From the NCBI GenBank assembly GCA_034437755.1, contig DAOTTV010000078.1, forward strand, positions 1-64,000: DNA of 64,000 nucleotides. Reading direction: 5' to 3'. The stretch comes from Anaerolineae bacterium (GTDB lineage Bacteria; Chloroflexota; Anaerolineae; Aggregatilineales; Phototrophicaceae). Each line of letters opens with the position of its first letter. Position 1 is the first letter of the stretch. Positions 3,689 to 53,761 of this stretch are shown piece by piece. Under the pieces are notes generated by a model. It saw nothing but the letters and a program-made list of their open reading frames with translations, was not told where the DNA came from and made no database searches. Both the position numbers and the translations under genes were made by a program.

Positions 3689-3747
3689 ACACCATGGTAT
3701 ACAGTATCATGGTAATCGATGGTCTATCATAGTTGAAAGCACAAGGC

Positions 3748-4770
3748 ATGTTCTCCAAAAGGCTTGGAGTGGACTTAGGGACGATCAACGTCCTGATTTA
3801 TGAGCGCAATCAAATCGTGCTACAAGAGCCGTCATTGGTAGCACTTGAAATCGAAGAGACAGGTGACGAGCGCATCATCGAGCTCGGTCAACCCGCGCGC
3901 GAGATGATCGGGCGTGTCGATGACGAAGGGATTCGCATTCTGCGCCCGTTACAAAATGGTGTGATCGCCGATTACGAAGTCACAGCCGAGATGCTGGCGT
4001 ATTTCTTCAGCAAAGCCGCTGGACGGATGCGTCTCTTCCGCCCGACGGTGATGATTAGCGTCCCATGGGGCGTGACCAGCGTCGAGAAACGCGCCGTCGA
4101 AGAAGCGGCACTGGCGGCGGGCGCTAAAGAGGCGTATTTGATATGGGAACCACTGGCGGCGGCGATTGGCGCGGGCTTGCCTGTCGGCACACCTGCCGGT
4201 GATATGGTGGTCAACATCGGGGGCGGCATCACCGAAGCGGCGGTTATCACCATGAACCACATCATTCGCGCCGAGAGTGGGCGTGTCGGCGGTTTAAAGC
4301 TTGACGATGCCATCGCGAGCTATGTCCGGCGTAAGTATAACCTCATCATCGGGCAACAGACCGCAGAGTCGATCAAGATTCAAGTCGGGGCGGCGGTCGA
4401 TCTCGAAGATGAGTTGACGATGGATGTACAGGGGCGCGATAACGTCAGCGGTTTGCCACGCACGATCACGATTACAACGGGCGAAGTGGTCGAAGCCTTG
4501 CACGACCCCTTGCTGAGTGTCGCGGGTGTGGTCAAAAGCGTCTTGGGCAATACACCGCCGGAACTCGCATCGGATATTATCGATCGTGGGATTGTGCTGA
4601 CGGGGGGCGGCGCACTTTTGCGCGGGTTAGATCAATTCCTGACCAAAGAGACCGGTGTGCCTGTTTTTCGAGCAGATAATCCTATGATTTCAGTGGCGAC
4701 CGGCGCTGGACGCGCACTAGAAGACCCCGCTATTTTGCGACGCTTACAGGAGCGTCGTAACCCCTACTAG
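3748..4770 (+). CDS. mreB: Rod-shape determining actin homolog MreB.
   Basis: MFSKRLGVDLGTINVLIY.., the actin-fold phosphate loops, and GGGALLRGLD at the C-terminus. The track ORF begins at a TTG at 3733; ATG 3748 matches the usual MreB N-terminus. Confidence 0.85.
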   Translation: MFSKRLGVDLGTINVLIYERNQIVLQEPSLVALEIEETGDERIIELGQPAREMIGRVDDEGIRILRPLQNGVIADYEVTAEMLAYFFSKAAGRMRLFRPTVMISVPWGVTSVEKRAVEEAALAAGAKEAYLIWEPLAAAIGAGLPVGTPAGDMVVNIGGGITEAAVITMNHIIRAESGRVGGLKLDDAIASYVRRKYNLIIGQQTAESIKIQVGAAVDLEDELTMDVQGRDNVSGLPRTITITTGEVVEALHDPLLSVAGVVKSVLGNTPPELASDIIDRGIVLTGGGALLRGLDQFLTKETGVPVFRADNPMISVATGAGRALEDPAILRRLQERRNPY

Positions 4771-4795
4771 ACCCAAAAGGGGCGATAGACATCGC

Positions 4796-4960
4796 GTAAC
4801 TACTCAGGTAGAGTCTTCTTGTGGGGTTTCACCCCACGCCCCAGCAGGTGATGTCTCCCTTGCACCCCAATTTTGCCGAACGCAAAGCGTTCGGCGAGTA
4901 CAGGTTCAACGGACGATCGTCCTTCGTGGGGGTTCGGGGGCAACGCCCCTGAGTAGTTAC
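4796..4960. mobile_element. MITE-like non-autonomous element, family 1, copy A (165 bp).
   Basis: Perfect 13-bp terminal inverted repeats GTAACTACTCAGG / CCTGAGTAGTTAC. It is flanked by a perfect 8-bp direct repeat GACATCGC (4788-4795 and 4961-4968). It is about 90% identical to a second copy at 51206-51368. Internal palindromes include GGACGATCGTCC and GCCGAACGC-AAA-GCGTTCGGC. Confidence 0.6.
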
Positions 4961-4976
4961 GACATCGCCCTCAGTA

Positions 4977-5615
4977 TTAATCGTCATCGTTTAGATAGTA
5001 CGTCATATGCTGGAGATGAACAACGGGATCGATATATTGCACCATCACATCGTCCGGCACATCAAGGCTAATGGGCGCGTAGTTCAAAATCGCTTTGACC
5101 CCCGCTTGCACGATGGTATCCGTAACAGCTTGCGCGACTTCGGCAGGCACAGCGACCATCGCGATCGACACGTTATTTTCGGTGATTATCTGCTCCAGGT
5201 CGTCGATGTGAAAGACGGGAAACCCGCCGATCGTCTGCCCGACCTTGCTCTCATCGGAGTCAAAAAGCCAGGCAATACGAAAGCCGCGATCCGTGAAGCC
5301 GCGGTAATGGGAGATTGCGCTCCCCAGATTACCCGCGCCAACCACAGCAACGCGCCATTCACGATTGACTTGCAAGACCTGACGTAATTTCTCGACAAGA
5401 AATTCGATCTGGTAACCAGTTCCCTGCTTACCAAACCCACCAAAGTGCGATAGGTCTTTGCGTATCTGTGCAGAGCTAATCCCCAAGCGTCGCCCTAACT
5501 CATGCGATGAAGTCACATCACGCCCTTCTTGTTTCAGGCGGTCTAAAGCCCGCAAATAAAGCGGTAAGCGACCAATGACGATGTCAGGAATGCGATCTGA
5601 CAACTTAGACGGCAT
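4977..5615 (-). CDS. rex: Redox-sensing transcriptional repressor Rex.
   Basis: N-terminal winged helix (..IGRLPLYLRALDRL..) plus a Rossmann NADH-binding domain (WRVAVVGAGNLGSA). Start chosen at MPSKLSD with an AAGGA RBS; the track ORF extends 17 codons further upstream. Confidence 0.85.
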   Translation of the reverse strand: MPSKLSDRIPDIVIGRLPLYLRALDRLKQEGRDVTSSHELGRRLGISSAQIRKDLSHFGGFGKQGTGYQIEFLVEKLRQVLQVNREWRVAVVGAGNLGSAISHYRGFTDRGFRIAWLFDSDESKVGQTIGGFPVFHIDDLEQIITENNVSIAMVAVPAEVAQAVTDTIVQAGVKAILNYAPISLDVPDDVMVQYIDPVVHLQHMTYYLNDDD

Positions 5616-5659
5616 AGCATGTCTGTCCTTATGATAAACAGCATTGTCAAGAGTGATTA

Positions 5660-5679
5660 TCTGTGACAAATGTCACAAT
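5660..5679. promoter_or_regulatory. Putative Rex operator (ROP box).
   Basis: TGTGACAAATGTCACA is a perfect palindrome of the form TGTGA-N6-TCACA, the Rex-family core. It lies 46-62 bp upstream of the rex start, in the divergent intergenic region shared with the HlyD/ABC operon. Confidence 0.5.
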
Positions 5680-44096: not shown

Positions 44097-44252
44097 GGTG
44101 GCTGTCCTCGTTTTGTGTTGCGGAGATAGTTAAGTTATTGTAGCAGGATATTCAGATGTGAACTAGCGTTTTCACATCAGTGACGCATGAGTAACAAACC
44201 ACACGTTGACCGCACTGCCGCTGTCGGGGACAATGCAGGTATTCATTTACTC

Positions 44253-44390
44253 GGTTCTTTCGTATCTTGCGTGGTCAAGCTCTTTTTGTTCCCTTTTTTC
44301 AAAATGAACAAAGTCAAGGAACAACAGTTCCTTGTAGGGGTGCGAGGGCAAAGCCCCTGCAACAAAAACCACGCGACATCCCAAAGAGCC
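44253..44390. mobile_element. MITE-like element family 2, copy 1 (138 bp), 29 bp upstream of folD.
   Basis: Imperfect TIRs GGTTCTTTCG...CCAAAGAGCC (ISL3-like GGCTCTTT ends). Flanked by an 8-bp direct repeat ATTTACT(C/T). It is about 90% identical to 53537-53720 apart from a 46-bp indel. Internal hairpins (GTTCC...GGAAC, GGGC-AAA-GCCC). Confidence 0.5.
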
Positions 44391-44419
44391 ATTTACTTTT
44401 AATCACAGGAGAGTGTCAA

Positions 44420-50632: not shown

Positions 50633-51145
50633 ATGACCATTCTCCCCGATGTTCTGCAAGCAGACTTGACGCTCGTGTTTTGTGGGACAGCCGCAAGTGA
50701 TGTCTCGGCGCGGGAAGGTGCATATTACGCCAACCCGACGAATTACTTCTGGCGCACGCTGTACGATGTCGGTTTGATTCCTGTTCGCCTACCGGCGGCA
50801 CAGTTCCGGCAATTACCGCGCTACGGCATCGGCTTGACTGATCTGGTCAAGCACGCACAGGGCAACGACAGTGATCTGCGCGACGAAGATTACGACGTGG
50901 AACGTCTCCGGCAAAATATCGCCACTCACCGCCCGCAAATCTTGGCTTTCACCAGCAAGAAAGCGGCATCGGTCGTTCTCCAGCGCCCGACGGGCAAAAT
51001 TGACTATGGCTTGCAAGCCGCGACACTGGACAACACGAAACTCTGGGTGCTAACGTCGCCGTCTGGCTCAGCACGTCGCTACTGGGATATTGCTGTGTGG
51101 CAAGGCTTGGCGGATTATATCGCCGGCTTGGACAATCTGCCCTAG
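50633..51145 (+). CDS. mug: G/U mismatch-specific uracil-DNA glycosylase (UDG family 2, Mug/TDG-like).
   Basis: LVFCGTAASDVSA...ANPTNYFWRTL...LTDLVK motifs of the Mug family. Confidence 0.8.
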   Translation: MTILPDVLQADLTLVFCGTAASDVSAREGAYYANPTNYFWRTLYDVGLIPVRLPAAQFRQLPRYGIGLTDLVKHAQGNDSDLRDEDYDVERLRQNIATHRPQILAFTSKKAASVVLQRPTGKIDYGLQAATLDNTKLWVLTSPSGSARRYWDIAVWQGLADYIAGLDNLP

Positions 51146-51205
51146 TTGGGAACGATTGCGGTTAATGGCGTGTCTGCGTGTATATAGAGAGAACGCGAGT
51201 CACTC

Positions 51206-51368
51206 GCAACTACTCAGGTAGAGCCTTCTTGTGGGGTTTACCCCACGCCCCAGCAGGGGATGTCTCCCTTGCACCCCATTTTTGCCGAACGCTTCGTGTT
51301 TGGCGGGTACAGGTTCAAAGGACGATCGTCCTTTATGGGGTTCGGGGGCAACGCTCCTGAGTAGTTAC
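51206..51368. mobile_element. MITE-like element family 1, copy B (163 bp).
   Basis: TIRs GCAACTACTCAGG / CCTGAGTAGTTAC (12 of 13 match). Perfect 8-bp target-site duplication AGTCACTC (51198-51205 and 51369-51376). Homologous to 4796-4960. Confidence 0.6.
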
Positions 51369-51472
51369 AGTCACTCTATGTATGTGATGGCGGATTCTGT
51401 ACAATGGTTCGATGAATATCTAAGCGTGCGTTTTTTAGCCCATTCAACTGATCAACTAGTAAGCAAGCCATT

Positions 51473-52474
51473 TTGGACATCATGACACCACCGACTTATT
51501 CGATTGTCGCCCCTGTATACAACGAAGAAGGCAACCTACACGTATTTTATGAGCGTGTCGCTGAGACGATGAATCGCCTCGACGAAACATGGGAACTGAT
51601 TCTAGTCAATGACGGTAGCCGCGACGGATCATATGACATCATGCAAGACCTCGCCACCCGCGATGGCAAGGTACGCTATGTGAACTTCGCCCGCAATTTC
51701 GGTCACCAGACGGCTGTCACCGCCGGCATCGACTATGCGACGGGTGACGCGGTCATCCTCATCGACAGTGATTTACAAGACCCACCGGAAGTGATCGCCG
51801 ATTTGATCGAACAGTGGAAAGCGGGTTACGATGTCGTGTACGCTGTGCGCGCCGATCGACGGGGCGAAAGCTGGTTTAAGTTGGCGACAGCGAAGATGTT
51901 CTACCGCGTGCTATACCGCATTACGGATGTTGATATTCCGCTGGATACGGGCGACTTTCGGCTGATGGATCGGCAGGTAGCGGATGTTCTGCGCCAGATG
52001 CGCGAACACAATCGCTTCATACGCGGCATGACCAGCTGGGCGGGCTTCAAGCAGACGGGGGTCGAATACGTGCGCCACGCGCGCGAGTGGGGCGAGACCA
52101 AATATCCCCTGCGTAAAATGCTCAACTTCGCGTTAGATGCCGTGACGAGCTTCTCGTTCTTCCCCTTGCAAATCATGGCGTATGCCAGTTCATTTCTGGC
52201 GATGGTCGCGATTTTAGTCGCCATCGTGATTTCAGCCTTGCGACTATCATTCGGTGAGGAATTCTTCGGCGGGCAGGCGACGACGATCGTTCTGTTGTTG
52301 CTGTTGAGTTCATTCCAGCTCTTCTTCTTATTTTTGATGGGGCAGTACATCGCCCGCATCTACGACGAGACACGCGGTCGCCCCTTATACGTGGTGGCGA
52401 AAACCGGCGGCTTCGACCAAACGCAAGCATCTCCCCCACCTCATGAAGACGTTGAGAAGGAGTCGAATATCTGA
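51473..52474 (+). CDS. GT2 glycosyltransferase (polyprenyl-phosphate sugar synthase, DPM1/GtrB-like).
   Basis: SIVAPVYNEE, DGSRDGS, the DxD (DSDLQD) motif and two C-terminal TM helices. Confidence 0.85.
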   Translation: MDIMTPPTYSIVAPVYNEEGNLHVFYERVAETMNRLDETWELILVNDGSRDGSYDIMQDLATRDGKVRYVNFARNFGHQTAVTAGIDYATGDAVILIDSDLQDPPEVIADLIEQWKAGYDVVYAVRADRRGESWFKLATAKMFYRVLYRITDVDIPLDTGDFRLMDRQVADVLRQMREHNRFIRGMTSWAGFKQTGVEYVRHAREWGETKYPLRKMLNFALDAVTSFSFFPLQIMAYASSFLAMVAILVAIVISALRLSFGEEFFGGQATTIVLLLLLSSFQLFFLFLMGQYIARIYDETRGRPLYVVAKTGGFDQTQASPPPHEDVEKESNI

Positions 52475-53472: not shown

Positions 53473-53536
53473 ATTAGCGGATATTCATCATCGGACAATA
53501 TGCGTCCGGTGCTGAATGCGCTATGATTGAGTTTAT

Positions 53537-53720
53537 GGGTCTTTCGTATTTTGCGTGGTCACGCTCTTTTTGTTCCCTTTTTGAAAAAAGGGAACGCCAA
53601 AAACTTTTGCTTTTTGAACGCTGTTCGTTCAAAATGAACAAGGTCAAGGAACTATCTTTCCTTATGGGAGTGCGGGGGCAAAGCCCCTGCCACAAAAACC
53701 ACGCGACATTCCAAAGAGCC
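53537..53720. mobile_element. MITE-like element family 2, copy 2 (184 bp), 41 bp upstream of the F420 gene cluster.
   Basis: TIRs GGGTCTTTCG...CCAAAGAGCC. Perfect 8-bp target-site duplication GAGTTTAT (53529-53536 and 53721-53728). Carries 46 bp not present in copy 1. Confidence 0.5.
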
Positions 53721-53761
53721 GAGTTTATTATTCAGAGTATGAGATGAGAAAGTGATAGATT

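Follow-up and report, generated by a model that had tools for sequence, protein, structure and literature searches.

A 163-bp non-coding element with ISBst12-type ends upstream of a glycosyltransferase gene in a Chloroflexota metagenome sequence

The plant MITEs Stowaway and Tourist have a short terminal motif for each transposase superfamily, combined with unrelated interiors and similar length. They are eukaryotic elements, are associated with Mariner-like or PIF/Harbinger transposases and make duplications of 2–3 bp. In prokaryotes, the described families Correia, ERIC, Nezha and Chunjie are short, non-coding, bounded by TIRs and flanked by TSDs, lie mostly in intergenic regions and form strong hairpins, all of which holds for the element described here (PMC3184786, PMC10969869). 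For Nezha, occupied and empty sites have likewise been shown between relatives (PMC3184786; PMC10969869). The classical families have ends and TSD lengths different from those of our element, and each is from one host genus or family, whereas ends of the type described below occur in many phyla and in archaea. For example, Chunjie elements of Geobacter are 178–235 bp long, with ends of 21 bp and direct repeats of 9 bp (PMC3184786), and identity with it was rejected on the basis of the 13-bp ends, 8-bp repeats and 163-bp length found here. IS66 goes unmentioned in a review of prokaryotic MITEs from 2024 (PMC10969869), we found no paper linking ISBst12 to MITEs, and a literature search with the end sequence returned only unrelated primers.

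The element, copy B of what we call family 1, was found in the window, i.e. the whole 64-kb stretch of DNA analysed, which is microbial-mat metagenome sequence (ERZ922773, JGI 3300012009, MAG GCA_964509265.1). The best-named homologues of the Mug and Rex proteins encoded in the window are from Chloroflexota, namely Phototrophicaceae, Aggregatilineales and Anaerolineae MAGs. Copy B is short, contains no gene, has TIRs, is flanked, like its sister copy, by a TSD of fixed length and differing sequence, has an empty site in a relative and shares its ends with autonomous elements. It is very probably a DNA transposon without coding capacity, in which the 13-bp ends are all that remains for recognition by an IS66-family DDE transposase (ISBst12 group). 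Family 1 is a new family of MITEs, ordinary in kind, and the superfamily around it is apparently undescribed.

Copy B occupies positions 51206..51368 on the plus strand. Its left TIR is GCAACTACTCAGG (13 bp, 51206..51218, plus strand) and its right TIR is CCTGAGTAGTTAC (13 bp, 51356..51368, plus strand), the latter being the same 13-mer as the right end that follows a transposase remnant discussed below. The two are complementary at 12 of 13 positions, the mismatch being position 2 of the left end, where C replaces the usual T. As GT starts 92 of 110 superfamily copies, the left end of copy B is slightly degenerate, and with this T-to-C change copy B may be a poorer substrate for transposition. 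The TSD AGTCACTC was read at 51198..51205 on the left and at 51369..51376 on the right. The chance of an exact 8/8 flank match at an element boundary is 1/65,536 per copy, and both family-1 copies match; a 20-mer from the element end occurs twice in the window against 0.00 expected in a shuffled window. The only coding content is a pair of mechanical ORFs of 60 and 84 aa that overlap the element, and a tblastn search of the 64-kb window with ten ISBst12-type transposases gave no match.

Upstream lies mug (50633..51145, plus strand), encoding a mismatch-specific (Mug/TDG-type) uracil-DNA glycosylase of 170 aa (PF03167, E 1.6e-13), homologues of which carry the name mismatch-specific DNA-glycosylase. 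Downstream is GT2 (51482..52474, plus strand, ATG at 51482), encoding a family-2 glycosyltransferase of 330 aa (PF00535, E 1.6e-34; gene call in L001). A preliminary description, made from the sequence of the window, had given the coordinates, the 163-bp length, the TIRs and the perfect 8-bp TSD of copy B, all of which are borne out by reading the sequence. It had also placed the element 60 bp past the mug stop and about 100 bp ahead of GT2; the measured distances are 60 nt from the mug stop at 51145 to copy B and 105 nt from the right TSD to the GT2 ATG. Two Logan contigs of this locus from independent short-read assemblies (L004 and L005) both stop 124 nt past the mug stop, inside the MITE, at the equivalent of window position ~51269. 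These breaks hint that the community contains strain variants or more copies that are nearly identical.

The second family-1 copy in the window, copy A, spans 4788..4968 on the plus strand with its TSDs, the element itself being 4796-4960 (165 bp). Its TSDs, GACATCGC at 4788-4795 and 4961-4968, agree at 8/8 positions and its TIRs are perfect (13/13). It sits between the convergent genes mreB (3733-4770) and rex (4977-5669). The two copies are 89–91% identical and have a common interior of 137–139 bp with the same boundaries, and each is flanked by its own 8-mer, AGTCACTC for copy B and GACATCGC for copy A, as the preliminary description had it. No further family-1 copies or fragments were detected in the 64-kb window by blastn. 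With only two copies, ~10% apart, the activity of the family is not demonstrably recent.

Direct evidence of insertion came from the closest relative available, a strain represented by contigs from ERZ10759711 and ERZ10759712. The Mug and Rex proteins of this strain are 96% and 98% identical to those of the window, and the flanking DNA is 88–95% identical. At the site of copy B, the related contig (L276) has one AGTCACTC, at 3833-3840, and the element is absent; the empty site, in the GT2 upstream region, reads ...ATATAGAGAGGACGCG-AGTCACTC-TATGTATGTGATGG... Window positions 51149-51205 correspond to L276 3784-3840 and positions 51369-51900 to L276 3833-4364, such that the two alignments overlap by exactly the 8-mer. 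The site of copy A is also empty: L282 has one GACATCGC at 2214-2221, no element and a rex-mreB gap of 33 nt, with window 4300-4795 aligning to L282 2709-2214 and window 4961-5498 to L282 2221-1684. This site is empty in L283 as well, and in a more distant relative (L286) there is no gap at this position either. The empty alleles at both sites are clean single 8-mers with no excision footprints. Insertion of the family-1 MITE is therefore proven directly rather than deduced: both copies are absent from a relative that has a single 8-mer at each site. The preliminary description had taken copy B as an independent insertion demonstrating mobility and had proposed comparing occupied and empty sites of the mug-GT2 region among relatives; that comparison favours insertion.

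The ends of IS66/ISBst12-type elements begin with GTAA (ISfinder). The preliminary description had named no transposase family; the GTAA ends and 8-bp TSD of family 1 pointed to IS66 (ISfinder family table). Both ends of copy A and the right end of copy B start with GTAA, and the left end of copy B with GCAA. A published end for the IS66 family is 'GTAAGCG' (PMC11946415). For the ISBst12 group of this family, a point of comparison is ISDge4 of Deinococcus geothermalis, which encodes a 449-aa transposase, has the ends GTGACTACTCAGCA / GTAACTGCTCAGCA and an 8-bp direct repeat, and has been observed experimentally to transpose; this first experimental report of ISBst12-group transposition dates only from 2026 (PMC12898284). 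Another IS66-type element is found on plasmid pHTA426 of Geobacillus kaustophilus (L244 14107-15741), with the ends GTATCTATTCAGC / GTAACTATTCAGC and the TSD GACGAGTT. Its 485-aa ORF contains DUF6444, zf-IS66 and DDE_Tnp_IS66 domains, the last at E 2e-64, and more than 6,000 homologues at E<=1e-10 were found among the candidates scored, many of them on contigs of 1.6–2 kb.

Elements were delimited in several metagenomic clades of this transposase. These are, in each case with length and ends, P0027 (1583 bp, GTAACTATTCAGC / GTAACTATTCAGG, TSD ATAAAAAG), P0067 (1598 bp, GTAACTGCTCAGC at either end), P0113 (1568 bp, GTTACTGCTCAGG / GTTACTGCTCAGC), P0092 (1571 bp, GTATCTGCTCAGG / GTTACTACTCAGG, TSD CTTTTGTT), P0053 (1600 bp, GTAACTGCTCAGG / GTAACTGCTCAGC) and P0024 from a Dethiobacteria MAG (1639 bp, GTAACTGCTCAGC / GTAACTACTCAGC, TSD AAATATAT); for a seventh clade, P0103, the right end alone was obtained (GTAACTACTCAGC). 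Eight elements yield the end consensus GT[AT][AT]CT[AG][CT]TCAG[CG], a ninth contributing its right end only, and perfect 8-bp TSDs are present at four (L244, L245, L272 and L296). The family-1 ends fall inside this consensus: most of the elements have at least one end that agrees with them at 11–12 of 13 positions, and the most divergent agree at 10–11. ISBst12 elements and the family-1 MITE are thus alike in their ends, GTAACTnnTCAG(G/C), and in their 8-bp TSD; in the ISBst12 elements, the right end is a few bases past the transposase stop codon. They differ in that the former are 1.57–1.64 kb long and encode a DDE transposase of 449–505 aa, whereas the latter is 163 bp long, codes for nothing and has an unrelated interior.

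The exact end of the window element was found next to a transposase in one case. In a Bacteroidota MAG (L195), a MITE (788-951) adjoins the last ~65 codons of an ISBst12-type transposase (tblastn E 1e-17), and the TAA stop of this remnant is followed directly by CCTGAGTAGTTAC (1147-1159), the exact 13-mer of the window element. Except for this remnant, neither the 64-kb window nor the ~1.5 Mb that flank ~240 related copies showed any ISBst12-type transposase gene. The flanks were scanned for lone ends, long end-pairs with matching TSDs, recurring ORFs and IS66 motifs; besides the L195 remnant and a MITE-bounded composite of 1563 bp (L241), degenerate MITEs were all that this yielded. Among the full-length elements recovered, none had the exact 13-mer at both ends, the best match being 12/13.

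Under the preferred reading, a transposase encoded elsewhere would bind both ends of the element and join it to target DNA whose two strands are cut 8 bp apart; repair of the gaps would then duplicate the 8-mer. The helper transposase would have been present in the Chloroflexota host at the time of insertion, and it is the short form itself that would have moved, as opposed to two full elements decaying in place. If the helper reading is true, a host genome should carry a single-ORF IS66-type element ending in GTAACTACTCAG. The family-1 MITE offers a minimal substrate for studies of ISBst12-type transposases.

Two other histories could produce a short element with an 8-bp TSD. Several IS families make 8-bp duplications (ISfinder family table), and a MITE moved by another such family, e.g. 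ISL3, IS1595 or IS6, would leave the same footprint; other helpers were also probably available in the host, as judged from a second MITE family with ISL3-like ends in the window. The ends of ISL3, IS1595 and IS6 elements, however, start with GG (the ISL3 type being GGCTCTTTG...; ISfinder), against GTAA here, and neither the 11–12 of 13 end positions held in common with most ISBst12-type elements nor the transposase remnant ending in the exact 13-mer fits with such a helper, which we consider very unlikely. The other history is that copies A and B decayed independently, each in place, from a full-length IS. MITEs do arise by internal deletion of IS elements, and the L195 contig has a truncated IS beside a MITE. 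However, the interior of 137–139 bp shared by A and B has identical boundaries, and two independent deletions would not yield one product; moreover, this interior has no similarity to ISBst12-type transposases (tblastn, window). In-place decay is accordingly given hardly any weight, and mobilization in trans of an already short element by an ISBst12-group transposase remains the reading followed here.

A different kind of explanation is that copy B is a structured regulatory RNA, a leader or sRNA of the glycosyltransferase operon, the inverted ends of which form a closing helix. The predicted fold, at -81.8 kcal/mol, is indeed very stable (z -7.0), and no shuffled sequence equalled it. The central hairpin differs between the copies at two positions, and at both of them copy B has a C-to-T change that keeps a G-U pair on the plus strand, although there are just two such changes. 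The opposite strand, however, folds nearly as well (z -6.7), as expected for palindromic DNA, and the window gave only a tRNA in Rfam 15 at the gathering threshold, with no match in copy B, nor any in 51100-51500 at E<=1. Copy A lies between two convergent gene ends, the close relative keeps the GT2 upstream region without the element, and across the superfamily (at least 72 clusters) the interiors are unconserved and the ends alone are conserved. Promoter- and terminator-like sites are also no more frequent than chance. A regulatory RNA is therefore highly improbable, and on the transposon reading the strong hairpin fold would be a by-product of palindromic design and not a selected RNA.

The same data bear on the suggestion in the preliminary description that copy B might supply or disrupt a promoter or terminator for GT2, which is left unsupported: consensus scans for promoters and terminators in or beside copy B gave nothing above chance, and a terminator-like hairpin on the minus strand, across the left TSD, is within chance expectation. 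The scan of copy A gave three promoter-like sites against 0.6 expected. L276, in which the site is empty, has the same 105 nt between the insertion point and GT2, so any GT2 promoter located there predates the insertion. The description of copy B as lying between mug and GT2 is correct as to position, but the neighbourhood is a derived one. In relatives, a gene of the amino-acid-kinase family (PF00696, 315–316 aa) lies between mug and GT2 (L276 2699-3783, L280 3630-4580). The window has lost this gene by a ~1085-bp deletion at 51146-51148, the junction of which is 52 nt upstream of the left TSD of copy B, and the mug-GT2 adjacency is therefore derived. At the GT2 locus the insertion looks neutral, with no effect detectable beyond its presence, and for the locus itself the consequences are very small.

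Elements with the same kind of ends were sought in metagenome contigs and in GTDB species genomes with the pattern AACTACTCAGG, 120–150 nt, CCTGAGTAGTT. Matches were found on more than 120 contigs from the metagenomes and more than 118 from the genomes, where ~2 chance matches were expected per collection, and removal of duplicates left 220 distinct elements of 146–176 bp. A perfect 8-bp TSD flanks 84 of the 220, and a further 38 have one mismatch (122/220 together). The register is specific: 8 bp alone is enriched, with 37 of 110 perfect against <=3 at other lengths, and registers shifted by 1–2 nt give only 0–3 matches. As the pattern imposed 11 of the 13 end positions, the invariance of the ends is partly by construction; at the two bases outside it, GT was found in 92/110 and AC in 101/110. 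Clustering of the interiors gave at least 72 unrelated groups, one of them consisting of family 1 by itself, and many families have short tandem subterminal repeats (GGCTGAA, GGTTCAC, GGCACAAA) that are inverted between the ends. A variant with GTAACTATTCAGC ends and a perfect TSD also exists (L292).

The hosts in the genome records are all MAGs and belong to many phyla, including Chloroflexota, Bacteroidota, several classes of Proteobacteria, Nitrospirota, Verrucomicrobiota, Deinococcota, Elusimicrobiota, Planctomycetota and Patescibacteria, as well as ANME-1 archaea. Copies are present on contigs of 0.3–1.3 Mb from Trueperaceae, Verrucomicrobiae, Saprospiraceae, Chloroflexia, Elusimicrobia and Alphaproteobacteria, several with perfect TSDs. 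The ANME-1 MAG contigs with copies carry the archaeal Kae1 (TIGR03722, 483 bits vs a cut-off of 375) and the methanogen marker YcaO (TIGR03266, 475 vs 365), and two of the copies on ANME-1 contigs have perfect TSDs. For several phyla, contamination or mis-binning as the source of the host range is ruled out by the 0.3–1.3-Mb contigs and the ANME-1 archaeal markers. Viral contigs were considered as a major carrier and rejected, with only two matches in IMG/VR. When 46 concatenated representatives were compared by BLAST with 72,556 plasmids, no genuine copy was seen among the matches listed; those ranked highest fell on a GC-rich palindromic repeat, itself unrelated, that is carried by one representative or by one next to it.

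We put the chances at about even that family 1 is a twig of an undescribed, cross-domain superfamily of MITEs with GTAACTACTCAGG ends and 8-bp TSDs, all of them serviced by transposases of the ISBst12 group. If this were so, the single-ORF branch of IS66, which has been little studied, would be among the most widely parasitised prokaryotic transposases, and the 13-bp end would act as a transposition signal portable between the domains. A recognisable 13-bp end is now tied to the ISBst12 group, and short hitch-hikers with an end of this type are common in uncultured bacteria and ANME-1 archaea. There is also a practical use, in that GTAACTACTCAGG ... CCTGAGTAGTTAC ~120–150 bp apart, together with an 8-bp repeat, can serve as a signature for masking repeats of this kind, which break metagenome assemblies.

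Some members of the superfamily have features of their own. One (L104 2662-2836) contains an internal GC-rich palindromic repeat, CCCCTCTCCCCTTGCGGGAGAGGGTTAGGGAGAGGGG, and similar sequence is present in hundreds of Azospirillum, Klebsiella, Sinorhizobium and E. coli replicons (plasmid matches H1-H40). MITE interiors can thus take up other repeats. An AT-rich member occupies the same locus in several human-gut metagenome contigs and on a predicted viral contig of 87.6 kb in IMG/VR (together L017, L032, L034, L096, L105, L121 and L289), with a TSD there that reads as 9 bp (CGTAAGTGC) and not 8. The composite from a Thermodesulfovibrionales MAG (L241 5651-7213) is a 1563-bp unit with a MITE left end on one border and a complete MITE on the other, and with TATGGGTA on both sides; this duplication is less certain, since a short tandem repeat makes up the right flank. 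Its small ORFs, as judged by eye, encode a four-helix-bundle-like protein and a DUF4160/DUF2442-like pair, and a 102-bp MITE is nested within it. The unit may be a MITE-bounded cargo transposon. In a Cloacimonadota MAG (L188 5419-6823), two paralogous ORFs of ~235 aa have a complete MITE on one side and a lone right end on the other, which may be another cargo arrangement.

The window also contains a second, unrelated MITE family, of the same size class as family 1 and with an 8-bp TSD, but with different ends. One family-2 copy is 138 bp long (44253-44390; 44245-44398 with its TSDs, ATTTACTC/ATTTACTT) and the other 184 bp (53537-53720; 53529-53728 with its TSDs, GAGTTTAT/GAGTTTAT). The latter and copy B bracket the three-gene GT2 cluster. 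Family-2 ends read GG(T/G)TCTTTCG..., i.e. GG(T/G)TCTTTCGTAT... / ...CCAAAGAGCC; we take them to resemble ISL3 ends (ISfinder). An ISL3 origin was considered for family 1 too and was rejected, its ends being GTAACTACTCAGG and not of the GGCTCTTTG type; the GG..TCTTT ends belong to family 2. The two families have in common an internal module of ~50 nt with two small hairpins, ...GGGGGCAACGCTCCTG, which in copy B lies at 51309..51359 on the plus strand. It is found at 4900-4951, 51309-51359, 44329-44359 and 53638-53689 and ends in GGGGGCAA(A/C)GCCCCTG. The module of copy B is 77% identical over 52 nt to that at 53638-53689 (blastn, E 5e-5), and the module 16-mer occurs four times against 0.03 expected, which points to exchange of the module among MITEs or to acquisition of a repeat from the host.
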